Virus record (IMG/VR): IMGVR_UViG_3300025000_000132
Coordinates: 1-54,244 of that record
Direction: 5' to 3' (one strand)
DNA from: a virus
Lineage: Duplodnaviria; Caudoviricetes
DNA length: 54,244 bases
The notes beneath the pieces were generated by a model that saw only the letters and a program-made list of their open reading frames with translations, had not been told where the DNA came from and did no database searches. A program made the position numbers and the translations under genes. Position 1 is the stretch's first letter. The number at the start of each line of letters is the position of its first letter. This document shows, piece by piece, positions 2,935 through 50,415 of this stretch.

Positions 2935-2956
2935 TGATACATAAGGAGGAAAAACC

Positions 2957-3974: not shown

Positions 3975-4056
3975 GCCGCCCGGCTCCTGGGGAGGGACAC
4001 GCGCCCTCCTCGGCGGCGAGGCAGCACAGACAAAAATTAAACAGGAGGGTAAAACC

Positions 4057-4224: not shown

Positions 4225-4227
4225 TCC

Positions 4228-4638: not shown

Positions 4639-4648
4639 GGAGGATAAA

Positions 4649-6116: not shown

Positions 6117-6304
6117 CCCCCGAACAGATCAAATTCATTCGCACCACCCTCGGGCGGACCCAGCAGGACATGGCCAAGATCCTCGGGGTCTCCGTCAGTG
6201 TCTGGCAACTCTGGGAGTCGGGTGCTGGCGGACCGAAGCCGGAGAACATGACCAAACTTCTGAAGCTCCACCACCACGTGGTGGGGCGGGAGGGGAGGGG
6301 ATGA
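6113..6304 (+). CDS. XRE-family HTH protein
   Basis: MTPEQIKFIRTTLGRTQQDMAKILGVSVSVWQLWESG. Confidence 0.85.
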   Translation: MTPEQIKFIRTTLGRTQQDMAKILGVSVSVWQLWESGAGGPKPENMTKLLKLHHHVVGREGRG

Positions 6305-11760: not shown

Positions 11761-12584
11761 AACCAGTAACAGTTCTCTACCACTCAGACGCTGACGGCTT
11801 TGCTTCAGCCTACGCAGCCTGGAGAGTCTACCAGGACACGGCGACCTACATCCCGGTCCAGTACAACCAGCCGGTACCGGAGATCCCTGAGGGCACCACG
11901 CACCTGCTCATCGTTGATTTCTCCTACGACCGGGAGACCTGTGACGCCCTAGCCGCCAAGTATGCGCTGCTGGTGATAGATCATCATAAATCTGCGGAGG
12001 AGAACCTACGAGGCAGCAACTACGCCATTTTCAGCATGAACAAGTCCGGCTGCGCCCTGACCTGGGAGTATTTCCATAAACGTGAGTCGATGCCTGCCAT
12101 CCTCGCTTATGTGCAGGACAGAGACCTGTGGAAGTTCGAGTTACCGGACTCGGAGACCATTAACCTCTACATTGCCACTCTGCCTTTCGAGTTTGGTATC
12201 TGGCACACTGAAGCCACGCATCCAGACTTCATCCTCAGTGCTTACAACGCCGGCAGCTACATCCAGACCTTTCGTAACGGCCAGATCAAAGCTGCCCTGC
12301 GCGACGTTCGGTTTATGTTCTGGGACATCCACGAGGTGCCAGTGCTGAACGCCTCAACAAATGTTTCAGAGATAGGCAACGAACTCTGTCGGGTCTACCC
12401 AGACGCCCCGTTCTCTGCGACCTATTGCGACAGAAAAGGGGTGCGGTCGTGGTCGTTGCGATCGGTTGGTGACTTCGATGTTTCTGAGGTGGCTCGGCGG
12501 TATAATGGCGGCGGACATCGGAACTCGGCTGGGTTTGCTACTGAGATCGGGGAATTTCCTGCTGGCTTTCTTTGGGGGGAGTGA
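11757..12584 (+). CDS. DHH/DHHA1 phosphoesterase
   Basis: YHSDADG, IVDFS, IDHH, DRDLW, SLRS, GGGH motifs. Confidence 0.88.
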   Translation: MKPVTVLYHSDADGFASAYAAWRVYQDTATYIPVQYNQPVPEIPEGTTHLLIVDFSYDRETCDALAAKYALLVIDHHKSAEENLRGSNYAIFSMNKSGCALTWEYFHKRESMPAILAYVQDRDLWKFELPDSETINLYIATLPFEFGIWHTEATHPDFILSAYNAGSYIQTFRNGQIKAALRDVRFMFWDIHEVPVLNASTNVSEIGNELCRVYPDAPFSATYCDRKGVRSWSLRSVGDFDVSEVARRYNGGGHRNSAGFATEIGEFPAGFLWGE

Positions 12585-22260: not shown

Positions 22261-23994
22261 ATGCGCATAATCAAACCAAGCGTTGAATATTTTGGAGCAG
22301 TACCGACAGAATATAATGCTGCACTTAAGTTCATCGAGATGGCAGGTAGGACCTGCTACCGCTCAGAGGACAAGATCACTGAAGATAGTGCCGAGGGGTT
22401 CGTCCGGAAACTGATCAAGGCTGGACATCTGGCTATGGTTGAACACTCGAATTTTGTGGTGCGCCACCGAGACCACGACAACGATGCCATGGTAAAAGCG
22501 ATGATCGCTGCCGGCAAATTCCTCACTGTACGCCGAGACTCGGATTACTTGTATGTAGGTGGCAACCTTACTGCTTGGTACCAGAGAGAAATGGGCATGG
22601 ACGAAACCTTGTTTGAACCGTTCCTTCGGCAGTACGACGTACTATTTGAGGTAGGAGACGAGTTTGACACAGCATTCAATGCTGCCGTCGAGCCTAGTTT
22701 TGGATGGACCATCTGCCCCCACGACGAAATCCCCAAGGAACTCCATCGTTACTCAGCAAAATTCATCTGTGATCGTGGTGTCAGCCATGAACTGGTGCGG
22801 CATAGGCCATGCTCTTTTGCTCAGGAAAGTACGAGGTATGTATCGTCTATAAATACTGAGGTAACCGCGGGTACACAGGAAGACGTAGTGTCACTGTACG
22901 AAGCAGGCATGTCCATGCGGCAAGTGTCCGAAAAATCCCTCGGCCTATTTACAGAATGGGACGTATACAAAATTCTCGTAGCCCATGATGTCGATAGAAG
23001 ACCGCTAGGTAATACTGGTCCAGTGGCGCATGACTTTTTCAATGTAATAGACTCAGTAGAAAAGTCGTATCTTCTTGGAGTGATACAGGCTGATGGAAGT
23101 ATCAGGGCAACAGACTCCCCCCAAATATCCATAACTCAGCATAAAGAGTATGCATGGTATCTGCACAGGATGGTTACCCAGTTTCTTCGCCCCTCTGCCA
23201 TGTGCAGCGCAGACAAAAATTGTAACCAAATTACAGTGACCTCCCCACAACTGAAAGACGATCTTTGCCGGGTAGGTATAATACCAAACAAGTCTTACGA
23301 CCAAACAGAGGAAGATATATCCAAATTGTGGGAAGCGGTACCGCCCGGCTTACTGCCGAGTTTTATCAGAGGATTCTTGGACGGGGATGGAGGAGTAAGA
23401 TTTTTCAAGCAAAAGAACAAAGGAGCTACCGACTCCTGCAATATAAATTGGAGCGGAAACCTTTTTCTTCTGCAAAGAATACAGCAATGGATCTTCGACA
23501 ATTTTTCCTATAATGCGCCGCTGTCTCCGGACGCAGTCAGCAAGAATATGTATCGGTTGCGAGTTACTTCGCCGACAGTAGGGAGGCAGCTTGTGACCCT
23601 TTTGCTTGAAGGGTTTACCTACCCATATGGTCACCCAGAGAAGACAGCACGAATGATGGAAGGCATAGGATTGTACGATTTTCCTGTCAATGTTTTTGGT
23701 GATGAAAAATTCATAATTGCGCAACCGTCTTGGTTATTTGAAGAAGGCCCGAGAGCACTGTGGACTTTTCTGAAAGCTATGGACCAGTCTGAGAGATCGT
23801 ATGAGTACATGCGTAGGAATGGGCTCTCCCCCCAACAAGCCCGAGCCGTCCTGCCTAATGCCCTGAAGACCGAGATCGTAGTCACGGCCGATGCGGCTGA
23901 GTGGGCGCATATCAGGAAACTGCGAACAGCGAAATCAGCCCATCCGGATATGCAGCGAATAATGAATATGATGCCTTGGGAGGAGTTTTTATGA
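22261..23994 (+). CDS. thyX: Flavin-dependent thymidylate synthase with an in-frame LAGLIDADG insertion
   Basis: AGRTCY..GH...EH, RGVSHELVRHRPCSFAQESTRY, ARAVLPN..T, LR..AHPDM. Confidence 0.9.
   Translation: MRIIKPSVEYFGAVPTEYNAALKFIEMAGRTCYRSEDKITEDSAEGFVRKLIKAGHLAMVEHSNFVVRHRDHDNDAMVKAMIAAGKFLTVRRDSDYLYVGGNLTAWYQREMGMDETLFEPFLRQYDVLFEVGDEFDTAFNAAVEPSFGWTICPHDEIPKELHRYSAKFICDRGVSHELVRHRPCSFAQESTRYVSSINTEVTAGTQEDVVSLYEAGMSMRQVSEKSLGLFTEWDVYKILVAHDVDRRPLGNTGPVAHDFFNVIDSVEKSYLLGVIQADGSIRATDSPQISITQHKEYAWYLHRMVTQFLRPSAMCSADKNCNQITVTSPQLKDDLCRVGIIPNKSYDQTEEDISKLWEAVPPGLLPSFIRGFLDGDGGVRFFKQKNKGATDSCNINWSGNLFLLQRIQQWIFDNFSYNAPLSPDAVSKNMYRLRVTSPTVGRQLVTLLLEGFTYPYGHPEKTARMMEGIGLYDFPVNVFGDEKFIIAQPSWLFEEGPRALWTFLKAMDQSERSYEYMRRNGLSPQQARAVLPNALKTEIVVTADAAEWAHIRKLRTAKSAHPDMQRIMNMMPWEEFL
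22843..23685 (+). mobile_element. Two-motif LAGLIDADG homing endonuclease inserted in thyX (boundaries approximate)
   Basis: YLLGVIQADG (23068-23097), FIRGFLDGDG (23362-23391), GIIPNKS, N-terminal HTH-like segment; no Hint motifs. Confidence 0.82.
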
Positions 23995-25728: not shown

Positions 25729-26019
25729 ATGAAACCGTGTCCCTTTTGCGGTAAGGCACTAAAAGAATTATATGCTCCTGCGCACCGCCTTACTGACTTC
25801 GGATATCACTATCATTCGTGTCCGACTATAGGATGTATAGCATCCAGGATACAAGTTACCTACAATAACGAGGATGCATGGAATCGACGAACTCCTGCAT
25901 TAAAAACCGGAGAGCCATGCAGCCACCCTGGGTGCTTAAACCACATGACTCATCCGTGCGAAGGGTGTGGAAGAATAGGAGGAGTTACTCCATCATCGCA
26001 GGCACCTCGTATTGAGTAG
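25729..26019 (+). CDS. Lar-like (restriction alleviation) zinc-finger protein
   Basis: AAGGAG RBS; MKPCPFCG..CPTIGC..AWNRR. Confidence 0.6.
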   Translation: MKPCPFCGKALKELYAPAHRLTDFGYHYHSCPTIGCIASRIQVTYNNEDAWNRRTPALKTGEPCSHPGCLNHMTHPCEGCGRIGGVTPSSQAPRIE

Positions 26020-29000
26020 CTACGTCCCTCTCACGTCGACCGGTCGTGCCGGACTCTCCCCGGAGGATCTTGCGCACGGCCGGTTTAATATCCCGCCCCC
26101 CGATGGCAAACCTCGGCATCCGCAGGTTGAACTTCCTGATATCCTCCATGGCGGCACTGTCGCCGTCACCCTCAAGGATGGCCTCCGCCGCCCGCCGGAT
26201 AAGTTTCCCTCGCCGCTCGGTGATCCGGGTTGATATCCCCCGCAGGCTGCGCTCCGCCCCTTGCGCCTTGGAGATCTCCTCCGGGTTGAAACCGAGGGCA
26301 ATCATCAGCACATCGTCGGGGCCGATCTGGTCGTCAGGGATCAACTTCTTGCCGGCGCCGGTCTTCACCCCGTCCGTCATAGCTCTGATCGCCTTGAAGA
26401 CATCCTTGATCGGTTTGGGGGCAGCGGCTTCAAGGCCCTTCATATAGTTGCCCTTGTTGATCATCTCGTCATATCCCTGCGCTAAGCCGGCACCGACTGA
26501 GAACACCGGGCCAAGCTGGTTGGCAGCCCACCACGCAGCAAGCTCCTTGCCATGCAGCCTCGGCGGCGGCTCGCTCTGCATCCCGTAGACATCCTGCAAG
26601 CCTACCCGCTTGGAGATATCCGCCCCGACCAGCGACGGCAGGCCGTGGGTCAAGAGGTCGGCCATGGTCTTCGGGAAGGTATTCTGTAACCAGTTGGTAT
26701 ACATCAGTCGGTAATCCTCCGGCTCGTCGTCGTCCCCCAGGATTGCCCCGAGGATGGCGAAGACCGTGCCGGCGAACGGCATCCCAAGAGACCCGGCCAG
26801 AGCGCCGGTCATTCCCATGATGCCGACGAACTCCTTGGTGGCCGCAGCCTTGATCTCCTTGCTCTCGCCCCTGATTGCATTGTTGAGCAGCATCGCCAAC
26901 CGGATGCCGGTCATGATCCGGTAATGCTGGAACTGCAGGACCACCCGAGTCAGACCGCCCTGCAGGGCCGCACCCTTGTTCTCCTTGGAGTAGGAATAGA
27001 GGGTGTCGTTGACCACTTCGGCGATGTCGTTCATCGCCAGGAAGAATTCCTTGCCGTCCTGGGAAGCCAGATCGTAGGTGCTGAGCACTGCCGCCTTGCG
27101 GGAGGTAAGTTCGGACAGGCTCATCGGTTTCATTGCCAGGTTGAAGACCTTACTCATCATGCTGTCCGGGTCCTTGCCGCGGGTCAGGTCATAGGCCTCG
27201 TGTGCTGCCGAGATATCGAGGAGGTTGCGAGCCATGGCCTCCCGCAGGACCAACAGACGACGTTGGTAGGGGGTGAGTTCGTCAGCTATCCGCTTCGCCA
27301 GCTGCTCCTCGGTGAACAACGGCTCGCCCAGTTCCTTGCCCTTGGCAGCCGGCGTGTTGCGGTTGTCGATGGTGACCACGGCGTGGAGTTCGTCAAAGAG
27401 CAGCTCGACAATTGGATCGTTGAACATCGGCGCCCGCCGGTAGTCTTTCTTGAACGACTCCTTGGTCCACAGTGCCAAGGCCTTGGCTGCCTTGACCGGC
27501 CCGTACTTGACCGCCAGCTTAGGCAGGGTCAAAGCGCCGAGCTGAGTCATCTGCACCAGGGCGATCGACGGCGAGGTCATGTACCAGCCGGTGCCGATCT
27601 TGCCTAAGAAAGATGCAGCCACGCCGACCTTCACCGAGCGCAGGGCCTGGACCCGGGCCCGCAGGTCGTTGAGCAGGTGGTTCTCCATGTCGGTGTTGGC
27701 AGCGGCATCACCGTCAAGCTTGGCCTTGATATCGTCGCCCATGCTCTTGAGGTCGCCCTCGATCTTCTTACCCTGCTCAGTCCAGGCGATGTTGGAAGCA
27801 TGACGCTGCATGTAATCGAGGTAACTGCGCAGCATATCGAGGCTGTAGCCCTTGACGTTTTTTCTGCGCACCGAGTTTTTCAGGGCGGAGGTCTCCGGCT
27901 GCCAGCGCAGCCAGATCTGGGTCATGTCGTTGATGGTGTTCTGAGCTGCCTCGAGGGCATCAGCAACGGCGACGTCGTCGTACTGGTTTACCCCTACCAT
28001 GTACTTTTCCCGGACAGTCTTGCTCAACTGCTCAAGCATCATCGCAGGTATTGCGACCGCGCCGGCCGGCTGCTTGTCCTTGTACGACTCCTTGATGCCG
28101 GCCGGATCAACACCGGCAGCGATGCGCTCAGCCTTGGCCTCGTTGCGCTCGGCGATGGTGGTGAAATGCTCGGCCCACTTGAAGCCGTCCTTGTCGACGT
28201 ACTTGAGGACGAAGTCGCCGACCCGGGCCAGTGGCCAGTAGGCACCATGCAGGTCGGTGAAGGTGGCGTCGAACTTGAGCATCATTTCTTTACGCTCGTC
28301 GGAGTTGGGCTCGGTCACCTTTTCAATGTAGCGCAGCAGGTTGTTCTTCTCCCGGGTCCTGATGCCGGCGATGTGCTCGACAGTGTCCTGGTAAGCCTGC
28401 TTCATCTCGTTGGTCTTGAGGGCGTCGTAGGCCTTCTTCGCCTCGCTGTAGGCCTCGATATACGTCAGCTTGGTGGCCTTTTGCATCTTCGCTGCCACCC
28501 ACTTCTTCTGAGCGTTCTTCAGCTTTTCGGACTTGGTCTTACCTTCTACCCAGTCCTGACTGTAGACGTCCAGCCAGGGGGTTATGCGGTTAAATGAGGC
28601 GGTAGCTGCCGCGGTGTTGAAGACATCCAGCCCGACGGTCTTCTGGGCCACCTCCATGGCCTTGTCGTAGACCACCTTCGAGGTGTCGACGATCTCAGTC
28701 TTGGCAGAGACCACGGCGTCCAAGTGCTTGGCGAAATCCTTGATCTGCGGGATGGTCTTGCCGAATGTCTGCACCAGGGTGTGCAGCGGGGTCACCGCCA
28801 GCCACTGCGGAGCATACTGGACATAGAGATCGTGGAGCTTGGACTTCGGGTTCTTGATCGCAGTGAGGGTCATGTCGAGCTTTTTCTGCCCGGACTTGAA
28901 GGCTTCACTGATCTGCTCGTCGGCGATGACACCGAGGGGGGTCTGGACCTGCTCGGCAGTCGTCCGTCCCATCAACTTATCCAGTGAAGAGGTGACCACG

Positions 29001-32000
29001 TTCGCGTCGGCGTTGAGCAGGTCCTCGCCCAGCCGCAGGACTTCGCTGAGAGCGGTGTCGGAGGCGGCGGTGAGGCCGAAAAACGTCCTGACGGACTGCA
29101 CGAACCTGGACCACAGGGTCTCGGTCTTGCCCAGCTTGACGGTCTCCAGGTAGTCCTGCATCTCCTTGTTGGACAGTGTCCAGGCCAGCACCTCGGAGGG
29201 GTTGTTGAGGGCGTTGACGTTGCGCTGCAGGATCCTCTGCTCGAACTCGGTGAGGGTCTCGCCGCTCGCCGCCCGGGTGTTGAAGTGGTCGATGATCAGG
29301 TTGGTGACATCGACCATCTCCGCGGTAGCCTTGGCGAGCGTCGTGCCGGTGCTGACCTTGCGGTTACCGACATGGATGGCCGCCTGGGTGGCGGCGTGGA
29401 TCAGCTCGTGGAGGACAGTCTCGTAGGACATCCCCACCTTGCCGGTGACATCGGCACCGTTCAGTCTGACCGTGGTCTTGATGCCGTCCGAGAAGTCGGT
29501 GGTCGACACACCCCGGGAGTTGGCTGAGGAGGCCGGGATGCTGTCGCCGACATGGGTGACGTTCAGGTTGAACTCGACGCCTGCACCCTTGAGCCTGAGC
29601 AGGGCCACCCGGACCTTGGCGGCGATCAGCTTGTGTCCGTTGTTCGGCGTGTTGTTGATCAGCCACTCAGCGGCCTGGATGGGGGTCTTGCCCTCGATAC
29701 CCTTCTGGACTTTCTCAGCTTCTGCTTTGGACGGGTCGCCCAAATTACTTGGACCCGCCTTGGCGTCGGCGACCTTTACTTGCTCATCCTCAATCACCGC
29801 CGTCAGCCCCTGGTACTCAGCCTCGTCCATCTCAGCTATCTCGGCCATGGCGGCATCGGCCTTGGCCCTCGGGTTCTGCGCCCGATAGGCGCGGATGGCG
29901 GCGTCGGACGGGACGCGTTTGAACGGCGTGTCGCCACTAGCGATGTCCTCAGCAATGACTTTCGCCTGTGCTGCGTAGGCGGAGGGGAGGGGCTTCTCTG
30001 CTTTCTTGGAGGTGACTTTCTTTTCGGGCTTAGCCTTGACTAGTGTAGGTTTCTTCGCCGGAGATTTAGCAGTATCCCCGGTAAGTTTGATCGGGTGAGT
30101 CTTTCCGAACCGGTCAGTCAGCGCAATCTCGTTGAAGGTTATTTCCGTACCCTCGAGCGAGGCATTACCAACGTATTTCTTCCCCTCGCCCTTCTTCACG
30201 TAGGCAATGGTCGCATGTGGCTGATAGTCCTTGTATGTCTCCCCGGGCAGGTCGACCAGGTCCCCTACCTTTTTGTTTGCGCCCCGCAGGGAGTCGCTGA
30301 TTATCTCGGCCTTCACCACGTCGTACTTGTCAGTTTCAAAGATCGACACCTTGCCGATCTTGGCGGTTACTGGGCCGACCTTCGACAGTTCAGCCAGTTC
30401 TGCAGGGTTGTCGGTACCAAGCCCGTACCTTACAGTGATATGCGGCTCTGTCTCGCGGCCATATGAATCATCGTTAGGATCGGTGTAAAGCTCACTATCA
30501 GGGATTGATTTTCCGAGGTCGGTTATCTTCTTAGCGGCAGGCCCCTTGATGTTCACCTGAGTGTTGCTGTAATCGTGTACCTGTCCTTCTTCCTTTACAG
30601 GTTTGGCAGTAGCGACAACCGCATTATTCTTCTTCCCCTCCCACTGCGCCTTCATCTTCTCGGCCGCAGACCGGACGCTCTCCTCGGAGGCGTCCTTGGC
30701 AGAGAAAGTCACGCCCTTGAGCGGGCCAGCCTGGTAAGTGAACTGCGGCAGGCCGAGGTTGTCGCCGTTGTACTTGAGGTCCTTGTCGACCTTGGCAGCT
30801 ACTCGGACCAGCTGTAGTTCTCCCCTCGACTCTCCGACGCTCGCACTGCTGTCAGTGCTGACTGCGTTGCTTGCCGGCAAATTTCCTGCTGACTTCTGGG
30901 GGCCTCCGGCGGGTTCTGCTTCGAGTACCTGAGAAAGCGTTCCTGCAGGTTCGGCTGCAGCTGGGGTTTGCGACGGAGCCACAGCCACGCCTTGACCAAC
31001 TCCTCCCTCCGGAGGTACAGGAATTGCAACATTGTTCATCTCCTCCCGTATTTTGAAGATCTCCTCCTGCACCGCGGTCTTCTCAAGGCCTACCGGCAGT
31101 GCCTCCCACTGATCAACAAGGGTGTCGTGCTGGAAGGTCAGGGTGTCGAGGTCAGTCGGCTCGGTCTGGTTGGTGACTACTGGCTGGGTACTAGCCGGGG
31201 CAGCGCTCGGTTCAGGAGTCAGTGGTTCAGAAACTCCGTCCACCACTTGCTCGGGTCCAGGTTGTACAGCCTGAACAGGTTCATTTGCAGGCGTTGCCTG
31301 CGGCTCAGTTTCATCTCTTTTTACCTTAGTTGCATTTTTCTCAAGCCAATTGAACTGGGACCCAGGACTCTTCGGACGCTTTGCCAACTCAGCATTGACC
31401 TGCTCTCTGGTCATGCCTGCTGGCGGTGCATACTCATAAACCTTGAACTCGTCTTTCTTGTCATTGTAAACCTGAAACCTCACCACCTCCGGACGCACCG
31501 GGTCGTCCTCCAGCTGCTCGAACTTCTTGGTCCCGGACTTGGCCAGCAGCTTCTGGTATTCCTTACGCTCGTCTGGCGTGAACTGCTCCCCGCCCAGTGC
31601 CTTGGCCTCAAGCTCGGCGAGGCGAGCAGGAGACTTCTTCACTGCATCGACTACGCTGCCGCCCTGCGCCAGGGTCTGGGCAAGGGTGTCGACGTCCGCC
31701 TCGCCGCCCTCGGTAGTGACCTTGCCGTTATGCACGACGCCCTCGACCCCTAGGTTCTTCAGCAGTGTCTTCTGGGCAGAATCCTTGACCGGGTCCACAG
31801 CAGCCTCAGCAGCACGGCGGATAGGCATCTCGTTGGCGATATCCTCAACCGCTCCGGAGAACCACTCCTCTGCCCCGGGCACGTTATTATCCACGGCCTC
31901 GGTGTGCAGCATATGGACCACAGCCAGCCGCGCTTCTGCCGGCGCCGCCTTCGGGTCGGCCAGGATCTGATCTACCGCTTCCGCTCTGCGAGAGTTACGA

Positions 32001-32893
32001 TAATGGCCGGCGAGTCCGAACGGCGCCAGCAGTGCAGTCATGCCGAGCGTCGGAGCAATAACGTCCTTGGTCTGCTGCCATGGATCAACGTCGACCCCAG
32101 CATTCTTCTCAACTACAGCCTGCCCGTAACCCTGACCCATCTCGGTCGCAACCTCGCCGACTGCGGTCTTGAACAGCTGCTTGGCAAAGGGCTTCCACAG
32201 CGCGGAGTCCGTCGCGTTTGCAATGACCTTGTCAATACCTTCCTTTGCTACTTTGCTCAGGGCCTTGCCCCCGATGCCGAGCAGCTTGCCGCCGAGATAC
32301 GTACCGATGGTCTCGCCGCCGGCCTCGATCGCTCCCGACTTCCAGCCAGCGATGCGGGCAGCCTCGGTGTCTCCACCGGCTTCCTTGACTCGCTCCATGG
32401 TGTCCTGAGCCTGGGCCATGCCCATAGGCACTGCACCGGCAAGCGCAGATATTCCCAGGCCAACAGCGGCAGGAACGGCAGCAGTGGGGGCGGCAGCCAG
32501 GCCGGCACCGACAACGAGCGGGATAGCGACGGAGGGAGCGAGCATCTCGGCGCCTTCCGCAAGGGCGTTGGTAACGGCGTTGTGACCTTCAGGATTCAGC
32601 TGGATCTCGGGTTTGGCGAGTCGCGCCTCGGCTGCGTTGACGATGCCCTGGCCGAACTTATACACTCTGGACTCCGGCTCGGTTGCCCACTTGGCAGCCT
32701 GCCCGACCATCTTTGGCAACTCTCCGACCACACCACGCTTCAGGCCAGTGTAGACTTCACCGACGGCGGAGCGATTCGCTGCAGTGCGGATGCCTACCGG
32801 CGCAGGGATATTGGCAGGAGAGTTCCCGAGGATGTCGTCTAAGGTGCCCTGCTGTGGCCCGTCGGCGGCGAGAATATCGTCAAGGGTAGGCAT
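25985..32893 (-). CDS. Giant polyvalent internal virion protein (2H phosphoesterase, zincin metallopeptidase, PLxRFG domain)
   Basis: HIT/HAT pair, VLHELIHA, YWPLARVG; last gene of the structural operon. Confidence 0.8.
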   Translation of the reverse strand: MPTLDDILAADGPQQGTLDDILGNSPANIPAPVGIRTAANRSAVGEVYTGLKRGVVGELPKMVGQAAKWATEPESRVYKFGQGIVNAAEARLAKPEIQLNPEGHNAVTNALAEGAEMLAPSVAIPLVVGAGLAAAPTAAVPAAVGLGISALAGAVPMGMAQAQDTMERVKEAGGDTEAARIAGWKSGAIEAGGETIGTYLGGKLLGIGGKALSKVAKEGIDKVIANATDSALWKPFAKQLFKTAVGEVATEMGQGYGQAVVEKNAGVDVDPWQQTKDVIAPTLGMTALLAPFGLAGHYRNSRRAEAVDQILADPKAAPAEARLAVVHMLHTEAVDNNVPGAEEWFSGAVEDIANEMPIRRAAEAAVDPVKDSAQKTLLKNLGVEGVVHNGKVTTEGGEADVDTLAQTLAQGGSVVDAVKKSPARLAELEAKALGGEQFTPDERKEYQKLLAKSGTKKFEQLEDDPVRPEVVRFQVYNDKKDEFKVYEYAPPAGMTREQVNAELAKRPKSPGSQFNWLEKNATKVKRDETEPQATPANEPVQAVQPGPEQVVDGVSEPLTPEPSAAPASTQPVVTNQTEPTDLDTLTFQHDTLVDQWEALPVGLEKTAVQEEIFKIREEMNNVAIPVPPEGGVGQGVAVAPSQTPAAAEPAGTLSQVLEAEPAGGPQKSAGNLPASNAVSTDSSASVGESRGELQLVRVAAKVDKDLKYNGDNLGLPQFTYQAGPLKGVTFSAKDASEESVRSAAEKMKAQWEGKKNNAVVATAKPVKEEGQVHDYSNTQVNIKGPAAKKITDLGKSIPDSELYTDPNDDSYGRETEPHITVRYGLGTDNPAELAELSKVGPVTAKIGKVSIFETDKYDVVKAEIISDSLRGANKKVGDLVDLPGETYKDYQPHATIAYVKKGEGKKYVGNASLEGTEITFNEIALTDRFGKTHPIKLTGDTAKSPAKKPTLVKAKPEKKVTSKKAEKPLPSAYAAQAKVIAEDIASGDTPFKRVPSDAAIRAYRAQNPRAKADAAMAEIAEMDEAEYQGLTAVIEDEQVKVADAKAGPSNLGDPSKAEAEKVQKGIEGKTPIQAAEWLINNTPNNGHKLIAAKVRVALLRLKGAGVEFNLNVTHVGDSIPASSANSRGVSTTDFSDGIKTTVRLNGADVTGKVGMSYETVLHELIHAATQAAIHVGNRKVSTGTTLAKATAEMVDVTNLIIDHFNTRAASGETLTEFEQRILQRNVNALNNPSEVLAWTLSNKEMQDYLETVKLGKTETLWSRFVQSVRTFFGLTAASDTALSEVLRLGEDLLNADANVVTSSLDKLMGRTTAEQVQTPLGVIADEQISEAFKSGQKKLDMTLTAIKNPKSKLHDLYVQYAPQWLAVTPLHTLVQTFGKTIPQIKDFAKHLDAVVSAKTEIVDTSKVVYDKAMEVAQKTVGLDVFNTAAATASFNRITPWLDVYSQDWVEGKTKSEKLKNAQKKWVAAKMQKATKLTYIEAYSEAKKAYDALKTNEMKQAYQDTVEHIAGIRTREKNNLLRYIEKVTEPNSDERKEMMLKFDATFTDLHGAYWPLARVGDFVLKYVDKDGFKWAEHFTTIAERNEAKAERIAAGVDPAGIKESYKDKQPAGAVAIPAMMLEQLSKTVREKYMVGVNQYDDVAVADALEAAQNTINDMTQIWLRWQPETSALKNSVRRKNVKGYSLDMLRSYLDYMQRHASNIAWTEQGKKIEGDLKSMGDDIKAKLDGDAAANTDMENHLLNDLRARVQALRSVKVGVAASFLGKIGTGWYMTSPSIALVQMTQLGALTLPKLAVKYGPVKAAKALALWTKESFKKDYRRAPMFNDPIVELLFDELHAVVTIDNRNTPAAKGKELGEPLFTEEQLAKRIADELTPYQRRLLVLREAMARNLLDISAAHEAYDLTRGKDPDSMMSKVFNLAMKPMSLSELTSRKAAVLSTYDLASQDGKEFFLAMNDIAEVVNDTLYSYSKENKGAALQGGLTRVVLQFQHYRIMTGIRLAMLLNNAIRGESKEIKAAATKEFVGIMGMTGALAGSLGMPFAGTVFAILGAILGDDDEPEDYRLMYTNWLQNTFPKTMADLLTHGLPSLVGADISKRVGLQDVYGMQSEPPPRLHGKELAAWWAANQLGPVFSVGAGLAQGYDEMINKGNYMKGLEAAAPKPIKDVFKAIRAMTDGVKTGAGKKLIPDDQIGPDDVLMIALGFNPEEISKAQGAERSLRGISTRITERRGKLIRRAAEAILEGDGDSAAMEDIRKFNLRMPRFAIGGRDIKPAVRKILRGESGTTGRRERDVATQYEVPAMME

Positions 32894-37464: not shown

Positions 37465-37949
37465 CACTGGCTCCGACGTTTCAGGAATACCGGGGCGAGG
37501 GCAAGTTCATCAAACGAGAAATCTCCACCATCAACATTAGCAACCCGGACCTTCCAGTATCTGGCCTTGCCGTAGAGGTATTTCTCCAAGGTCTGGGTAA
37601 CCTCCTGCTGGACCTGACCGGTCTTGACTGGGACGATGGTGAATGTCCGCGCCGTCGTCTCGTTCTCATCGCCGTAGAGGGTAAGCAAGAGATCGTCAGC
37701 AGTCTCAAAGGCAATCCGGAACGCCTCGATACTGGTCTGACCTCCGCGGCCGAAGTCGTGCAGCGGCGTGTCGACCCAGGCGGATATCGCTGTGGCTCCG
37801 TCAAGGCTGCCGGTTTCTTCGTAGATGCCGGCCGCCCCGAACCAGATCAACTCTCCATTGAAGAACACCGCCGAGTCAAACGGTATGTTGATGTACTGAC
37901 TGGGAAACTTGCCGGCCAACTCAAGGACTAGGGTCAATGCGTCGCTCAT
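37464..37949 (-). CDS. Putative tail structural protein
   Basis: AGGAGG RBS; beta-rich, KARYWKVRVANVDGGDF. Confidence 0.65.
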   Translation of the reverse strand: MSDALTLVLELAGKFPSQYINIPFDSAVFFNGELIWFGAAGIYEETGSLDGATAISAWVDTPLHDFGRGGQTSIEAFRIAFETADDLLLTLYGDENETTARTFTIVPVKTGQVQQEVTQTLEKYLYGKARYWKVRVANVDGGDFSFDELALAPVFLKRRSQ

Positions 37950-39325
37950 ACCGGCCTCCTGTATCTGAGCACTGTGCCGTCAAGCTGGGTGGGCGTAGCG
38001 GTGTCGAACCTACCCGACTGCATGGCGGAGAAAAGAGCCTTCAGGGCCGGCAGGACAACGACCATCTGGCCGGTGATCTCCTCATAAGAAGTCAGCAGGA
38101 TCTGCAGTTCCGGCAGGGTTACATGCAGGGAAGCCGCCTCACCGGCAGACCCGGAGAAGAGAACGGAAAGCGGGGGGAGATCCACGATCAGTTGCCCCAG
38201 GGTCTGCTGGTGAGACGAAAATGCGGGCAGCAGGTCGGGGAGATGCACGACCAGTTGTGCCAAATTCTCTACATCCGCTGTGAACAGCGCAGCGAACGGC
38301 GGGAGGGTGACATTGAGAGACGCTACTGAACCGGTTGTCGAAGAGAACAGCGGGGTGAGTTCAGGCAGGTCAAGTGCGAACGCCGCCCCGGCCCCGGCGG
38401 AGAACATCAAGGTCGGCAGGTCAACATCGAGAGCGCAGGTCGCCCCCATGACTGCTGAGAACTGTATCTCCGGAAAGGGCAGGTCGACAGTCAATGCGGT
38501 GCCGGCGACGAAGGCCGGGACCAGTGTCGGTAGGTCCACATCCAACCATGCCGGCGAACTGGTCGCCCCCGAGAAGATCAAAGTCGGCAGGCTGACGTTC
38601 AACGCTGCGTAGTTGCCAAGAGCTTGGAACAGAGGTGCAAGCGTCGGCAAAGTGACTGCAAGGTTTCCGGTCTGGTACACTTGAGCTATAGGCGCTTGCC
38701 CGGTAATCCGCATCTGCCCGGAACTGGGCAGGACGGTAATGGTGAGAGTGGGTGTCCCTCCAGTGAAGGAAATTTCACCAGATGTTGGATTTACAGAAAT
38801 ACCTGCCCTTGCAACAGGTGTTCCTCCTGTAATGGAGACACCTTTTGTTAATGGGGCGGCGGCGGTAGTGGGGATGCCTTCGGTTACCTCCAGATCGGCA
38901 GTGGCTGGTGAAAGAACAGGGGTCCACGAGAACGCCTGCGCTGAGTTGTTTTCCCAGGTATGGGTGAACGATGCGGCTGACTCCCATGCTGAATTGTCAT
39001 CACTCCACTCGATGTTGAACGCAGACGGGGACGCAGCATAGTAATCCTGTCGTGGGGTTAATAGCACCTCGACCAATGATTTTTCTATCCCCGCGCCAAA
39101 GTCGTACTTCCACCACGCCGGCACAGAGGATGATGTCTGCCATAAGGTAGAGGTATTGTTGTCTACCGCTTCTGCGGCATATCCGAAAGACTCGCTACTG
39201 GCATACGCCGTTCCCGAACCTGTCTGGTCGGTTCCGCCTACGCTCTCACGAAGTTCTACCTCGGAGAGCGCATTATATGCCCCTGCCACTGCGGTTATAT
39301 ATATTCGCCAGTACCTATGCCCCAT
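37946..39325 (-). CDS. Tail / receptor-binding protein with discoidin (F5/8C-like) N-domain and LxVxLP repeats
   Basis: RYWRIYIT..AVDNNTSTLW..WWKYDFG..WSDDNSAW; about 11 repeats in the C-half. Confidence 0.65.
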   Translation of the reverse strand: MGHRYWRIYITAVAGAYNALSEVELRESVGGTDQTGSGTAYASSESFGYAAEAVDNNTSTLWQTSSSVPAWWKYDFGAGIEKSLVEVLLTPRQDYYAASPSAFNIEWSDDNSAWESAASFTHTWENNSAQAFSWTPVLSPATADLEVTEGIPTTAAAPLTKGVSITGGTPVARAGISVNPTSGEISFTGGTPTLTITVLPSSGQMRITGQAPIAQVYQTGNLAVTLPTLAPLFQALGNYAALNVSLPTLIFSGATSSPAWLDVDLPTLVPAFVAGTALTVDLPFPEIQFSAVMGATCALDVDLPTLMFSAGAGAAFALDLPELTPLFSSTTGSVASLNVTLPPFAALFTADVENLAQLVVHLPDLLPAFSSHQQTLGQLIVDLPPLSVLFSGSAGEAASLHVTLPELQILLTSYEEITGQMVVVLPALKALFSAMQSGRFDTATPTQLDGTVLRYRRPV

Positions 39326-43641: not shown

Positions 43642-44643
43642 TTACAGTTCAGGAACCGCTACTTCCGCCCTTCCAATCCAGGCCTGTTGAAGTATAACAG
43701 CCGTGAAGTAGGTTTTCCACGCTACTGAACCCCTCTGCCCTCCGGGGTCGCCGCCGCGAGGGACGTTCGGATTAAGGACCATCGGAGTAATAGCGTTGGA
43801 GCCCTTGAGCGGTACTACCCCAAAAGCGTCCGGAGCAAGATAGATGACCGGATAGACATCGGCACTGGTACCGGTAGTGGAGATCATCGTGGTGCCGGAG
43901 CCGGCTTTTGCTCCACCGCCGTCGGCCCATGCCTCAAAGACCGTCGAAGAGATGTATCGAACATTCTCAACCGCTCCGAGTTCGCTCTCGTACTTTGATG
44001 TTCCGCCGTAATCGACAACGTCCTTGAACCCCTGCAACCCCCGAACGGTTGTCTCGAGGTCAGGGTGGATCAGACCGATGTAAGACGGAAGGACATTCTC
44101 AGTATTGAAGTTTGCCGAGCTGGAAATCTTCGATGTGAACGGTCTAGCGAATTGGCGCTTGAACCCACGAATGACTTTGCGCTGCAGGTTGAGGGTGAGG
44201 GGGGTGTTGATGTCGGTCCTGGCCGAACCATTGGCCCGGTACAAGGTGGTGCCGGCCTTGATGATGCCGAAAGCGACCATTTCAACCGTCAGAGCGGCCT
44301 GTTCACCGATCATCGCCGAGTATTCCTGCAAGACCGGATCGGTATGCAGATCAGCAATCACGTCGGTCAACTCGAGATAATCCAGATACTGACTCAGCGT
44401 CGCCGTGTAGTCGGTCTTGGTCGGAGTGCTGCCAGACGGAGTTACACCCTCAACTACTGGAGTGGTGGCTGCGGCCAGACGCTCGTAGCGGCGGAACTTC
44501 TGGGTGTTGGTCTGGTTCTTGCCAAGCGGCTTGGACTGGCCGAACTGCTGGATGACCAGATGCGGCTGCCCTCTCTTCAACATCTCTACCGCCGCGCTTG
44601 CTGCTACTGCCGGAGAGATATCCCCGTAAGTCGTTTGTGCCAT
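43642..44643 (-). CDS. Major capsid protein, N4-gp56 family
   Basis: TTYGDISP..KFRRY..EGVTP..HPDLE..DVYP..DPGGQRG..WK. Confidence 0.88.
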   Translation of the reverse strand: MAQTTYGDISPAVAASAAVEMLKRGQPHLVIQQFGQSKPLGKNQTNTQKFRRYERLAAATTPVVEGVTPSGSTPTKTDYTATLSQYLDYLELTDVIADLHTDPVLQEYSAMIGEQAALTVEMVAFGIIKAGTTLYRANGSARTDINTPLTLNLQRKVIRGFKRQFARPFTSKISSSANFNTENVLPSYIGLIHPDLETTVRGLQGFKDVVDYGGTSKYESELGAVENVRYISSTVFEAWADGGGAKAGSGTTMISTTGTSADVYPVIYLAPDAFGVVPLKGSNAITPMVLNPNVPRGGDPGGQRGSVAWKTYFTAVILQQAWIGRAEVAVPEL

Positions 44644-45748: not shown

Positions 45749-45967
45749 TCAGCACGTCACTTTGTATGGGTCGGTCAGCGGCCCGTCCCTAAATATTGAT
45801 GGGTACGGAGAAACTGGTGCTAAAGTAGGAACGACTCCCAAAGCATCAAGCATCTTCCGCAGTTCCCTCAACTCGTCCATTGTTAGAAGATGGACAGCGT
45901 CGCCTATTCTCAATTCGATCTTCACTGATATCTTCGGCATACTTACCCCCTCTTGTGATTTCTTCAT
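45749..45967 (-). CDS. Small hypothetical protein (alternative start 45940)
   Basis: ATGA overlap with portal. Confidence 0.5.
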   Translation of the reverse strand: MKKSQEGVSMPKISVKIELRIGDAVHLLTMDELRELRKMLDALGVVPTLAPVSPYPSIFRDGPLTDPYKVTC

Positions 45968-48021
45968 TGTACTCTTTCTCCCCCCTTCGTTTGCACTGCC
46001 GTCGATAACAGTGTCTTCAGATTTTCCAACTGGTTCCTGTCCTCGGCCGACTTGGCATTAGCCAGGTTACTCTCGACCCGGGAGAGGATCTCCTGGATCG
46101 TCGCCTCGGTGGACATCGCCACCACCTGTGCGTCCATGCTGGTCTTCTCAGCGGCTGCCGACTCCTTGGCGGTCTTGGCCTGGGTCAGTCCCTGTTCGAT
46201 CTGAGAGGCCTGCGAGGCGGATTCTCTCATGCCGGCCAGGACCTGCCGAGCCTCATCCTCCGGCAGTAGCCGGTCAACAGGAAGATCGCGGGCCTTGAGC
46301 CGGTCGATCAACAAGCCGTAGGTGTCGAGGATAGCCCGCTCCTCGTCGGTCAGGGTAGTGACGAACTGGTCAAGGGCGGCGCCGCGCACTTCCTTGGCGA
46401 CGAGCGACAGGTTACCCTTGGCGACGACGTGGTAGTCACCCTTCAGTTCCTCGTTCGGATTGAACTCCATGTTCCATTTCAGCAACGAGCCGATCAGGCT
46501 GGTAGTGAACTTGTCGAAGGCCCTGACGGTGTCCTTGGTAACCATGTTGGCCGAGCCCATCATCATGCTCATGTTGTTACTGGTCCTGAACGCCTCGCCG
46601 AGCGGCTGCTGCTGCATCGCCCCCATGGTGTAGGCCGGCAGGTTGCTCTCGATGTCGAGCTGCTGCCTTTCCATCTGGATGACGTTGAGGATGTCGGCGA
46701 CATGCGACTGGGTGACGATCGCCCGCACCGCCGGATACTGGGCATCGATGCCGTCGCCTTCCCGCTCGATGGTCATAAAAGCATGGATTGGACCGATGTT
46801 CTTGCGCCCGGGAGCGAGCAGGGATTTGTTGACCTCGAGGATCGGGCCGGCGCAGGCCGACATATTGTCTTTCAATATCCGGTGCGAAACGCAGAGCGAC
46901 ATCTGTGAGTCCCTGACCTCTTCCGGCAGGCCGACGCCGGTCAGCCCGGAGTCCTCGTCCTCGGCGTAGATGAAGGCATGGTATTGGTCGGACGGCCGTT
47001 CCCCGAAGGCTGCTTTCTGGGCTTTGATAATTACGTCGTCGATGAACCATAGGTCGGCGAAGACATCCTCGTCCATCTCGTCTTCTTTGATCTCAACCCC
47101 GGCTGCGGCCAGACTATGCGCTGAGATGAAGCCGAGGCCGCGGTAGACCTCATACCTGCGGGCGGTACGGTCGGAGAGGTTGGCCGTCTTAGCCAGTTGC
47201 TGCAACTCAGTCTCATATGTCTTGGCGGTGTAGTTGCCTTGTGGGTGGTCCGTCAGATACTGCTTGATCATGTCCGCCATGAAGTCATCGCGTTTGGCGA
47301 GGTTGCGAAAATCATGCCGGGTCATCACCACCCGCTCAAAAACCATGTCCTGGTCGATCCAGGCCTTGGCCATCAGGTCAGGGTAGAAGTCCCAGATCCG
47401 CAGACTCTCAGGATATGGCCGCTTGACTGTCTTAGTTTTGGCTACGTAAGCACTGGTCACCGGATCGGCTTCCCAGACTCGCTCCTGCTGGGTGCGGACC
47501 ATCGGGCTGCGGGCGATGCCGAAGCCGTAGATGTAACCGCTGCGCACCACCCGCTTGCAGAGCTGCGGGTAATCGATCTCGGCATCGGAGAGTTGATCGG
47601 CGATCTCGATCTCCATCTTGCCCTTCCTCGCCTCGGCAAAGGCCCTGACCTCCCGCTCGATCGCATCGCTGCTCATCGGCTGCCCGGATTGCTGCAGGGT
47701 GGAGAGGATATTCTGCAGAGCTTCCTGCGGGATCGATGGGCTGGGGGAGACCCCGAGTGCCCAGTTGCGATCCTGGCTGGGGAACATCATCTCCATCAGC
47801 TTGGCCACCCCGCCCTTGATCTTGACCTTGGTGTCCCGGGGGTAGACATGCGACCGCTCGTCCGGGATGCCGGCGAGGATGTCCGGATCGTACTGGCCGG
47901 CGTGTTGCCGGAGGTTCTTCAACCACTGGATTTCGCACAACGCCCGGTCATTGATGAACTGCCCGAGCTGACCTTTGAGCAACGTCCCTGTCTTTGCCAG
48001 TTCTTCGTAATTGATTTCCAT
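45964..48021 (-). CDS. Portal protein
   Basis: 685 aa, immediately after terminase; WLKNLRQ..GQYD, WDFYPD, GVGLP, WNMEFN. Confidence 0.82.
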   Translation of the reverse strand: MEINYEELAKTGTLLKGQLGQFINDRALCEIQWLKNLRQHAGQYDPDILAGIPDERSHVYPRDTKVKIKGGVAKLMEMMFPSQDRNWALGVSPSPSIPQEALQNILSTLQQSGQPMSSDAIEREVRAFAEARKGKMEIEIADQLSDAEIDYPQLCKRVVRSGYIYGFGIARSPMVRTQQERVWEADPVTSAYVAKTKTVKRPYPESLRIWDFYPDLMAKAWIDQDMVFERVVMTRHDFRNLAKRDDFMADMIKQYLTDHPQGNYTAKTYETELQQLAKTANLSDRTARRYEVYRGLGFISAHSLAAAGVEIKEDEMDEDVFADLWFIDDVIIKAQKAAFGERPSDQYHAFIYAEDEDSGLTGVGLPEEVRDSQMSLCVSHRILKDNMSACAGPILEVNKSLLAPGRKNIGPIHAFMTIEREGDGIDAQYPAVRAIVTQSHVADILNVIQMERQQLDIESNLPAYTMGAMQQQPLGEAFRTSNNMSMMMGSANMVTKDTVRAFDKFTTSLIGSLLKWNMEFNPNEELKGDYHVVAKGNLSLVAKEVRGAALDQFVTTLTDEERAILDTYGLLIDRLKARDLPVDRLLPEDEARQVLAGMRESASQASQIEQGLTQAKTAKESAAAEKTSMDAQVVAMSTEATIQEILSRVESNLANAKSAEDRNQLENLKTLLSTAVQTKGGERVQ

Positions 48022-48045: not shown

Positions 48046-50415
48046 TTAATAGCCTTCTCGCTGAGCAGGTCGGTACGGCGTGGGTTGGTTGAGGGGGTTG
48101 AAGTCAGTAACCCTAATATGCTCAGCCGGGTCATACTTGCCTGACAATAAATATAAGTCACCATATTGCCCTGCTTCGGCGATATGTGACCATTCGTTCT
48201 TCTCAGGACTGTCGGAATACTTACCGGTCATCTTCTGTTTCTGGTATCGATATTTGCTTCGCAGGGCCTCGATATACCACTTACAGGACGGATCGATCAT
48301 CATCAGCGGGTCGCCATCCGGGTAGTTGCTCAGCATCTGCTCGGTCGCCTGGATCCTGGTAGTCGGATCGTTGGTCGACGCCGCCTTGACGATGGCTCCT
48401 TCCTCGTCGAAGTCTGCCTGCAGCACCTTGAACGCCGAGGACTCATCAGAGTCGGCCCGCCGCTTGCCGGCTGGATCGCCGATGAAGATCAACGGGTTGG
48501 TTGGGAAGAAGTTCTTGATGAGCGGACGCAGCTTGTTCTTGCTGAACCGCTTCATCCCCATGTCAAAAGCTACCGCCTCCCGCAGGACCCGCACTCGCCC
48601 GTCGAGATCCATCTGCTTAAAGGTCGCCGCCGGCGTTAACCCGCAGTCGAAAGAGATGATCACCGGTAGGAAAGGATCTATCTGCAGGGGAACCTGCGAT
48701 ACATGGCGTTCCGCCTTGAATGTAGTAGCGTAGACCGCCTTGCCTGAAAGCGATGGAGAATACATGCCATGGATGTATGTGTCGACAAAGGTCTTGGTCT
48801 CGCCCTCAGCCAGATCGGTGTAATAATCCGGATGAAGATGGTCCCTATTCTCCGCCTCTGGGGAGATACCCGAAGGCTGCTTGAAGGCATCGACCTTGAT
48901 GACGCTGTTCGGGTTCCCTTCTTCCTGGGGAAGATGCTCCATCATTTTATAAGCAGCACTGTCGATCTCCGGTGGGTTGGAGTCCATTATCAGGCCGTAC
49001 CACGTTCCAGGGACCTCAACCGGATTCGGGTATCGTCTGAGCCTGCCCTTGATCGAAGAGTAGAGCGCAACAGGCACCTCCCTGAATTCATTGATAAATG
49101 CTCCCGATAACTCCAAGCTGAGAACTCTTCCTATATCATCCTCGGTATCAAGCGGAAGGAACATTATCTCCGCATCTACTTCTCCGAAGTTCAGCCGGAA
49201 CAGCATCTTGGTATCGTGCCAGGTACCAAAGTCCTTCATCCAGTGCATCCACGTTTTGAGGGTGGTGTCGCGCAGCTGCTTATTAGTATTTCGGATGATC
49301 GCCCACCGCGAAGACCTCTTGCCTTTGTTCCAGATTGGCACCTCCAGACAACGACGCAGGATCTCGACGCAGCAGGCCGCGCTCTTGCCAGAGTTCCCAG
49401 TTACAAAAATCGAAGTGTTATGCCTCGCGAGGAAAAACCCCGACGAGACAGTAAAACAATACTTCTTTCCGTCCGTTGTAGGAACTCGCTCGGTTACTGT
49501 GTTATCGCATCGAAACATTGAAACAGCCCGCTGAGACCCTGGCGGAGCTATATGCACGACATACGTCGATCGCCAATTCTGCTGCGAGTATGTTTGTACA
49601 CTGATCGTTGCCCGCCCCCCTACGGCATGGACAGCGTACTGTATAAAATCAGCATCACACCTATTGGCAGAGTGATACCTGGTATCTGGCCCTTCAAACA
49701 AGCCATCCCAGTGAGTCATCTCGTCGACGACAATCTGTAGCTGCCGCTGAGACAGCCCCCACCAAAAGGCTCCTTCAAAAGTCTTCTCTTTGTACTCAGA
49801 CTCGAATACAAAAATCTCCTCGGTCGGACGTGTCGGGTAGCACCTACGAATGTAAGGTACTCCAGCTGCTGTTAAAAGTTCAACGATCCGGGTTTTCTTT
49901 CGATCTTTTCTAACGCAGATTGTTGTCTGCCGCCCAACTTTGGCGTGGTACGCATCAGCATTAATGGCTACTGCGAGTCGAAGAAACGCATCAGACACTG
50001 GGTAGTCTTTGGTTGTAGGGATGAAGTTTATAGGTATCCGGTTTTTAGAGAGCTTCTTTTCCAGCCTCGCTGCTGTTTTTACCTTGAAGTTCCCCGCCCA
50101 GTCATATACAGGAACTCTATGCTCAGCACTCAGCTGCATAGACAGGGTCCTGTTGTGGAACCATATAAGTTCGTCACACGGCAGGACTACATACGCTTCT
50201 GGTTCGACGAACCGAAGGGCTCCGGACTCATCCCACTGCGCTACTTTGTCTCCTGCCTCATACGCATCAATGCGCTTCCATCCTGTCGGAGTGAGGAACT
50301 CGGTGTCTGCGGAGGTACACCCGATCGGCCCCATGATTGCTCGATGGAAGGCGTTCGACCGCATGAACTTCGAGACGGTCGGCGACGCAGTGAATTTGAA
50401 ATCAATATCAGCCAC
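48046..50415 (-). CDS. terL: Terminase large subunit, intein-containing
   Basis: Walker A GPIG/SGKS split by intein; IIRNT..QLRDTT; SLEL..INE; DSNPP; nuclease FDCG, GDPAG, HIAEA. Confidence 0.92.
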   Translation of the reverse strand: MADIDFKFTASPTVSKFMRSNAFHRAIMGPIGCTSADTEFLTPTGWKRIDAYEAGDKVAQWDESGALRFVEPEAYVVLPCDELIWFHNRTLSMQLSAEHRVPVYDWAGNFKVKTAARLEKKLSKNRIPINFIPTTKDYPVSDAFLRLAVAINADAYHAKVGRQTTICVRKDRKKTRIVELLTAAGVPYIRRCYPTRPTEEIFVFESEYKEKTFEGAFWWGLSQRQLQIVVDEMTHWDGLFEGPDTRYHSANRCDADFIQYAVHAVGGRATISVQTYSQQNWRSTYVVHIAPPGSQRAVSMFRCDNTVTERVPTTDGKKYCFTVSSGFFLARHNTSIFVTGNSGKSAACCVEILRRCLEVPIWNKGKRSSRWAIIRNTNKQLRDTTLKTWMHWMKDFGTWHDTKMLFRLNFGEVDAEIMFLPLDTEDDIGRVLSLELSGAFINEFREVPVALYSSIKGRLRRYPNPVEVPGTWYGLIMDSNPPEIDSAAYKMMEHLPQEEGNPNSVIKVDAFKQPSGISPEAENRDHLHPDYYTDLAEGETKTFVDTYIHGMYSPSLSGKAVYATTFKAERHVSQVPLQIDPFLPVIISFDCGLTPAATFKQMDLDGRVRVLREAVAFDMGMKRFSKNKLRPLIKNFFPTNPLIFIGDPAGKRRADSDESSAFKVLQADFDEEGAIVKAASTNDPTTRIQATEQMLSNYPDGDPLMMIDPSCKWYIEALRSKYRYQKQKMTGKYSDSPEKNEWSHIAEAGQYGDLYLLSGKYDPAEHIRVTDFNPLNQPTPYRPAQREGY
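49393..50319 (-). mobile_element. Intein in the terminase Walker A loop (309 aa) with an in-frame, divergent LAGLIDADG-like region
   Basis: CTSADTEFLTPTGW..SAEHR..KYCFTV..VTGN followed by Ser; LAVAINADA and EMTHWDG. Confidence 0.9.

Follow-up and report, generated by a model that had tools for sequence, protein, structure and literature searches.

What does a 2H phosphoesterase domain do inside a giant protein that a phage encodes together with its virion genes? The question is raised by the viral record IMGVR_UViG_3300025000_000132 of IMG/VR, whose whole stretch of 54,244 bp is called the window here. The giant open reading frame (ORF) P0001 of the window encodes a 2H phosphoesterase fold with an intact HxT/HxT tetrad, and alignments with close relatives showed that this domain is a swappable cassette at a fixed slot of the protein. 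The features concerned are as follows, with amino acids (aa) numbered along the giant protein.

25985-32893, minus strand: giant ORF P0001, 2302 aa, a polyvalent-type protein and the final gene of the late operon
29999-30606, minus strand: exchangeable cassette, aa 764-965, comprising the 2H domain and the downstream Lys/Pro-rich linker (blastn and protein alignments against a sister phage)
30077-30574, minus strand: core of the 2H phosphoesterase fold, aa 774-939 (AlphaFold2 model; ranges aligned to solved 2H structures)
30434-30442, minus strand: first HxT motif, H818-I-T820, within EPHITVRYG (aa 816-824)
30209-30217, minus strand: second HxT motif, H893-A-T895, within YQPHATIAY (aa 890-898)
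29996-30076, minus strand: downstream Lys/Pro-rich linker, aa 940-966, with 9 Lys and 3 Pro in 27 residues (composition)

A swappable 2H cassette at a fixed slot

The preliminary description of this locus had placed paired HxT motifs, about 75 residues apart, inside the giant protein. They fall exactly on the HIT and HAT codons, and the spacing between H818 and H893 is 75 residues. The 2H fold that it had proposed was borne out by structure prediction and Foldseek. A single-sequence prediction of the domain was too poor (pLDDT 65) and was superseded by an AlphaFold2 model of high confidence, calculated from 18 sequences comprising the domain and 17 short homologues (pLDDT 90.5, pTM 0.81). When we compared this model with the PDB using Foldseek, 38 matches were obtained at E ≤ 0.001, and among the matches listed all were 2H phosphoesterases. 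In the Pfam search, PF13563 (2'-5' RNA ligase/2H superfamily) matched the excised piece 30090-30580 with 27.3 bits (E 4.3e-06), a borderline pass of the cut-off of 27, while a longer piece (26.5 bits) and the whole protein (21.2 bits) stayed below it; weaker matches of the domain were those to LigT_PEase (Pfam) and to PHROG 755 ('RNA ligase'). Among 203 related segments, both histidines and the threonine of the first motif are kept in 100% and the threonine of the second motif in 99%, and G823, F852, Y890, P892, A896 and Y897 are likewise kept in 99-100%. In addition, a KKGxGxKY loop that follows the second motif is well conserved among the relatives. We consider it very probable that the region encodes an active 2H domain within a polyvalent protein.

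Presence or absence of the domain in related phages had been named as a check in the preliminary description, and in close scaffolds it proved to be replaced or missing. One close phage relative was found via the adjacent 648-aa gene, which is 96% identical; its giant protein P0206 (L003:7378-15747, plus strand) has 2789 aa. When we aligned the two phages with blastn, DNA homology ended at window position 30607 and restarted at 29998. In the protein alignment, the stretch upstream of the slot (aa 700-759) is 90% identical and the stretches downstream are 76% (aa 956-1039), 94% (aa 1069-1308) and 91% (aa 1314-2296) identical, whereas the 2H region (aa 760-955) is 22% identical, that is, unrelated, and the slot of the sister protein is occupied by an ART-PolyVal ADP-ribosyltransferase (ART) domain (PF18760). 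A search with the HExxH module, which in the window protein follows the 2H domain and precedes the C-terminal one, retrieved three scaffolds that are 87-93% identical to this protein outside the slot and 87-92% identical in the C-terminal parts, and their slots contain an ART domain, about 85 residues, and about 36 residues of linker only, respectively. The flanks common to the window protein and the three scaffolds are ...AEKMKAQWEGKKNNAV and PLPSAYAxQAKVIAEDIA.... By local hmmsearch, the 2H domain was detected in 0 of the 120 proteins from the HExxH-module search, which included the window's own C-terminal part. In addition, the 2H cassette retains 50-83% identity in proteins that share only 21-27% with the window protein in the C-terminal domain. 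What is new here is a slot with four states (2H, ART, short stretch and empty) on near-identical scaffolds, although such an architecture may be among those in the supplement of Iyer et al. 2017.

The sister protein also contains extra stretches at two other places, corresponding to aa ~1039/1068 and ~1311/1314 of the window protein; together with the slot, there are therefore at least three variable places in the scaffold. As a separate observation, P0206 carries three ART-PolyVal stretches, one of them in the 2H slot and one within the extra stretch at aa ~1614-1793, and its other extra stretch is located at aa ~1014-1373.

Two further properties of the region were only partly as first described. 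The 2H domain had been reported to lie between Lys/Pro-rich linkers; the downstream linker is pronounced (aa 940-966, 44% Lys and Pro compared with 13% in the whole protein), but the upstream one is weak (aa 750-773, 21%). Codon usage in the region had been described as more A/T-ending than in the flanks, and the GC content at third codon positions (GC3) is indeed lower (0.665 compared with 0.758 across the gene), but values equally low or lower occur in 19% of equal-sized windows along the gene. GC3 is lower still upstream (0.52 at aa 493-656), so the contrast of the 2H region holds only against the C-terminal half (0.77-0.92). An argument for foreign origin from codon usage was rejected, since the 2H domain is no outlier by this count.

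The family to which the cassette belongs is large. When we searched 1.84 billion representative proteins with the 2H domain using HMMER, 4600 proteins were found at E ≤ 1e-3; stricter thresholds of 1e-10 and 1e-30 left 2955 and 139 of them, respectively. Within the phage collection, matches to the domain were limited to 5 uncultured huge-phage records and one weak hit in a cultured phage. Among 204 domain-bearing proteins that were fetched, 168 have at least 1000 residues and 129 at least 2000, and 19 have 350 residues or fewer. A word-indexed search restricted to proteins of 1266-4029 residues gave 84 giant proteins that carry the domain at 30-83% identity. Precomputed Pfam annotation of these 84 lists PF13563 in 76, LPD38 in 12, ART-PolyVal in 11, Acb1 PF23474 in 8, PolyA_pol in 4, GGDEF in 2 and RelA_SpoT in 1, and a Pfam rescan of 15 of them found LPD38, LPD23, RadC, ART-PolyVal, AAA_34 with Helicase_C_4, LPD1, LPD5, SLT and PolyA_pol among their families. 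The giant relatives that bear the 2H domain are polyvalent proteins as described by Iyer et al. 2017, whose section on 2H domains in phage polyvalent proteins proposes that they degrade defence nucleotide signals (PMC5512222). The window protein resembles those proteins in placing a 2H domain in a multi-domain giant protein encoded with virion genes and having no RNA-ligase partner, and its relatives share with them ART-PolyVal, LPD38, LPD1/5, a Sno-type helicase, RelA/SpoT and GGDEF. There is no essential difference between the two; the window adds the resolved four-state slot.

Acb1, LigT and Usb1 as relatives, and the candidate substrates

The domain had first been described as Acb1-like, and this stands as far as the best PDB profile matches and the pairing of the tetrad histidines are concerned. 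When we searched all PDB sequences with the profile of the 18 sequences, seven hits were obtained at E ≤ 10. The top three were Acb1 entries (9q2g, 1.2e-04; 9q2y, 0.0067; 7t26, 0.0094), and the remaining ones were three AKAP7-like proteins and one unrelated protein. LigT, Usb1 and CPDase gave no hit at the same threshold, though their structures are present in the PDB, and a phmmer search of the PDB sequences with the single 2H domain gave only a chance match (E 1). When Pfam was run on the 18 aligned members, PF13563 was found in 18 (best E 3.3e-15), Acb1 in 15 (E ≤ 0.01), LigT_PEase in 10 and CPDase in one. The closest named clusters of the ESM Atlas are viral, with the Acb1 family on 28-62% of their members. 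In the hhalign comparison with T4 Acb1 (probability 46.6%, E 2e-04), H44 pairs with H818 and H113 with H893; the catalytic tetrad of T4 Acb1 is H44/T46/H113/T115, and W74 and F107 are named as base-stacking residues by Hobbs et al. (PMC9117128). These two aromatic residues pair with the invariant F852 and with Y887, respectively. The window domain thus shares with known Acb1 proteins (T4 gp57B and that of Erwinia phage FBB1; PF23474; PDB 7t26/7t27 and 9q2g/9q2y) the viral 2H fold, the HxT/HxT tetrad and aromatic residues at the two aligned positions.

Several points weigh against an Acb1 assignment. First, the window copy scores 21.9 bits (E 1.6e-04) with Acb1 PF23474, under the cut-off of 27 bits, although relatives that pass it exist, such as P0033 with 27.9 bits. 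Second, the hhalign alignment spans residues 42-128 of T4 Acb1, so that the base-stacking aromatics Y12 and W147, the adenine contact E141 and the C-terminal lid lie outside it, and no equivalents were recognised in the window domain. Third, the KKGxGxKY loop of the present family is absent from T4 Acb1. The two also differ in setting: Acb1 stands alone, with ~150 aa, and the window has a ~165-residue core within 2302 aa. Taken on sequence, the domain leans closer to Acb1 than to LigT. A structure-based assignment of clade or substrate was also tried and was rejected, because Foldseek and VIA-align gave all 2H clades similar strength and the rankings conflict, with Usb1 first in one case and LigT-type proteins first in the other. 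In the literature, nothing was found on phosphodiesterase structures of Burkholderia phage BCSR5.

A nucleotide signal as the substrate of the domain is possible, with prospects that we put just short of even. One alternative is RNA end-healing, in which a LigT/ThpR-type 2',3'-cyclic phosphodiesterase would open the cyclic phosphate ends that host defence RNases of the metal-independent type create on tRNA or mRNA, a first repair step early in infection. A paper on NAD by the group of Iyer et al. (PMC9503650) describes 2H enzymes as common RNA-repair parts. The LigT/ThpR equivalog model TIGR02258 gave 18.6 bits for the domain and 13.4 bits for the whole protein, far from its cut-off of 65.7, and LigT-type structures (PDB 1iuh, 5ldi and 1vdx) show 9-16% identity in structural alignments, in addition to the missing profile hit. 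Searches of the record with PF09414 and PF01139 revealed no RNA ligase, although the record is 88% complete and a ligase could be missing, and RNA-ligase Pfam families occur in 0 of the 84 giant relatives in the precomputed table. Iyer et al. 2017 (PMC5512222) likewise state that the polyvalent-protein version of 2H was never associated with RNA ligases. RNA end-healing is thus argued against on several counts, and we regard it as unlikely.

A second alternative is an offensive RNase, which would trim or cleave host RNA in a Usb1/Mpn1-like manner, leave 2',3'-cyclic phosphate ends and aid host shut-off on entry. Usb1 gave no profile match at E ≤ 10 and 7-12% identity in structural alignments, nothing was found in favour of RNA binding, and the model is a single compact domain; this activity appears very unlikely. 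A third alternative is that the domain is directed against defence but at a substrate that is not Acb1-like, namely another small phosphodiester such as a 2'-5' oligoadenylate-type molecule, ADP-ribose 1'',2''-cyclic phosphate or another NAD-derived signal. The ART domain of other scaffolds occupies the same slot, but this sharing is alternation and not a common pathway. No family of this kind appeared in the PDB profile search, and CPDase was matched in a single one of the 18 Pfam-searched members. We consider this third substrate class quite unlikely.

Among defence signals, the preliminary description had suggested those of type III CRISPR systems along with CBASS. This suggestion is weakened, except for cA3-based systems, because Acb1, whose substrates are 3'3'-cGAMP and further cyclic di- and trinucleotides that contain adenosine, does not cleave cA4 according to PMC9117128.

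The giant carrier protein and its delivery

Besides the 2H domain, the giant protein contains the following features.

26066-28243, minus strand: PLxRFG ('tail-700') C-terminal domain, aa 1551-2276 (NCBIfam NF032893)
29024-29746, minus strand: HExxH module, aa ~1050-1290, between the 2H and C-terminal domains, with HELIH at aa 1162-1166 (29396-29410)
32414-32554, minus strand: long Gly/Ala-rich hydrophobic stretch, aa 114-160 (Kyte-Doolittle scan)

With three unrelated domains (2H, HExxH and PLxRFG) in 2302 aa and a site in the late operon, the protein has the properties that define polyvalent proteins, that is, several unrelated domains in a protein encoded with virion genes. NF032893 matches it with 329 bits (E 6e-98) against a cut-off of 100, which makes it a member of that family. 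When we searched with the PLxRFG C-terminal part by tblastn, matches were found in 144 phage records, mostly in giant genes of ~60-kb phages. In Pseudomonas phage Itty13 (L004:42-1934, plus strand), a protein of 630 aa consists of the PLxRFG/tail-700 domain alone (local profile E 6e-180; PHROG 10089 positions 4008-4647). What forms the C-terminus of the giant proteins is therefore an independent module.

The HExxH module has 153 homologues; the residues H1162, E1163, H1166, E1234, W1238 and R1269 are shared by every one of the 120 sequences examined. No Pfam model detected it, the best being Tox-MPTase3 with E 0.16, and Pfam searches on five other pieces of the giant protein gave no match at E < 0.05. 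Judged by the invariant residues, the module is probably a zincin-type metallopeptidase of the polyvalent scaffold, of a form that Pfam families do not cover. Iyer et al. 2017 describe zincin-type peptidases as the commonest component of polyvalent proteins and propose that they process the protein into functional units (PMC5512222). In addition to the Gly/Ala-rich stretch, the Kyte-Doolittle scan revealed hydrophobic stretches at aa 278-296 and aa 2030-2054, and the three together would fit a membrane-contacting giant protein.

Is this protein delivered into the cell? The C-terminal part of PHROG 10089 ('DarB-like antirestriction', 4647 positions), namely positions 4260-4613, is matched over positions 4263-4613 by aa 1927-2274 of the window protein with E 1.5e-44. 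The giant protein of phage phi24B matches positions 4260-4538 of the same PHROG, and Bcep22 gp75 belongs to it over its full length. The phi24B protein was detected in virions by proteomics and was proposed to be an ejection protein (preprint 10.64898/2026.04.10.717836), and JC1 gp69, a homologue of Bcep22 gp75, yielded 51 unique peptides from CsCl-purified virions (PMC9144972). The window protein resembles Bcep22 gp75, JC1 gp69 and phi24B gp47 in being the product of the last large gene of the structural module, in its size of thousands of residues and in the shared PHROG 10089 part at its C-terminus. Their domain contents are as follows: phi24B gp47 carries LPD5, LPD1, LPD38 and MuF-C according to the same preprint, and Bcep22 gp75 shows methyltransferase- and helicase-type matches and no 2H.

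Direct homology of the window C-terminus to the giants proven in virions was tried and rejected, since BLASTP gave E 0.61 for phi24B and E 0.066 for Bcep22 gp75. The tail-700 domain (NF032893) is absent from both of these proteins at the thresholds used, and a local jackhmmer search from the window C-terminus reached neither, which leaves PHROG 10089 as the only link. In the literature, proteomics was found neither for the window phage nor for a PLxRFG-domain protein; the accessible text of PMC9505181, on a protein with this domain, contains none. Considering these points, an alternative is that the giant protein is not delivered into the cell and that the 2H domain acts late, in assembly or outside the cell. 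It is countered by the gene closing the structural operon, by the PHROG region shared with the giants found in virions, by hydrophobic stretches that resemble those of ejection proteins, and by Iyer et al. 2017, who infer virion packing of phage-type polyvalent proteins (PMC5512222). We rate non-delivery as rather unlikely. Packing of the giant protein in the head and its delivery with the DNA is probable by analogy with those giants, and the reading as an ejection protein is favoured because gene position and scaffold features fit. The NAD paper likewise regards polyvalent proteins as virion-embedded and likely injected (PMC9503650). Free-standing Acb1 has been reported in Vibrio phage virions (preprint 10.1101/2024.12.24.630238).

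A short motif at the C-terminus deserves separate mention. The sole BLAST alignments of the window protein to Bcep22 gp75 and phi24B both fall on aa 2203-2240, where LLNxAxRG is combined with a Gly-rich hydrophobic stretch. This match may reflect distant homology or may be due to chance.

Gene layout of the phage and proposed role of the cassette

The IMG/VR record is linear, and CheckV puts its completeness at 88%. The plus strand carries the replication genes and the minus strand the late operon, and the latter includes the genes listed here as well as those of additional head, connector and tail proteins.

48046-50415, minus strand: large terminase
45964-48021, minus strand: portal
43642-44643, minus strand: major head protein
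37946-39325, minus strand: tail protein

The closest cultured relative of the portal is that of Pseudomonas phage Rollin with 37% identity, followed by distant HMO-2011-type marine podoviruses. With only such distant cultured relatives of its portal, the phage therefore belongs to an uncultured lineage. No tRNA genes were found in the record, and the GC content of window positions 1-3000 is 0.38-0.44 compared with 0.49-0.64 elsewhere in the record.

Other genes of the record showed unusual domain structures. In the DNA polymerase ORF (5983-9333, plus strand, 1116 aa), an endonuclease-like stretch (PHROG 93, aa 585-864) splits two polymerase parts and could represent an intein or an inserted homing endonuclease. 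Similarly, in a 577-aa ORF (22261-23994, plus strand), thymidylate-synthase matches at aa 170-195 and 502-571 flank an endonuclease-like stretch (PHROG 4645, aa 204-449), a possible second intein or homing endonuclease insertion. The N-terminal part of the large terminase (789 aa) is PhoH-like (PHROG 32482, aa 29-345) and precedes the terminase match. Finally, the replication module encodes a DHH-family phosphoesterase (11757-12584, plus strand; PHROG 4771, E 3.3e-73), which is the second phosphoesterase of the phage.

Based on the observations on fold, slot and carrier protein, a sequence of events can be proposed for the 2H cassette. The region is predicted to encode a catalytically competent, metal-independent 2H phosphoesterase, and the giant protein would be packed in the phage head and ejected along with the DNA. 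The cassette, held on flexible Lys/Pro-rich linkers and perhaps released by the HExxH peptidase, would then act in the cytoplasm ahead of phage gene expression. Its likeliest substrates would be 3'-5'-linked cyclic oligonucleotide signals of host defence, such as CBASS-type di- and trinucleotides, and cleavage would proceed, as in Acb1, by attack of the 2'-OH via a 2',3'-cyclic phosphate. The whole chain, in which a 2H cassette in an ejected polyvalent protein is active on defence cyclic oligonucleotides, is tentative and somewhat doubtful. The anti-CBASS and delivery interpretation of the preliminary description is reasonable and partly supported, and it restates the published prediction of Iyer et al. 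2017, which these authors have also repeated in a paper on jumbo phages (PMC7824862). We found no paper that tests a 2H domain of a polyvalent protein or the destruction of signals by an injected 2H domain of such a protein. Likewise, no fusion of Acb1 to a polyvalent protein was found in the literature, judged in part by titles and abstracts; in the accessible text of preprint 10.1101/2024.12.24.630238, 'polyvalent' refers to phages with several receptors.

At a more general level, the giant ejection protein might serve as a protein-level platform, in which recombination swaps anti-defence domains into slots bounded by conserved flanks and linkers, so that phage lineages would be pre-armed differently. 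The 2H domain would then be a domain-sized mobile element that destroys cyclic-oligonucleotide alarm signals before phage gene expression. In this full form we hold the idea to be speculative and on the unlikely side.

Apart from the slot, such a finding is to be expected in a family as large as the count of representative proteins above indicates. With the states 2H, ART, short stretch and empty, the slot polymorphism amounts to a natural near-isogenic series on one scaffold; it opens the 2017 prediction to direct testing and also shows how giant polyvalent proteins diversify. Should the injected 2H domain destroy defence signals, counter-defence against CBASS-type systems can begin before phage gene expression.

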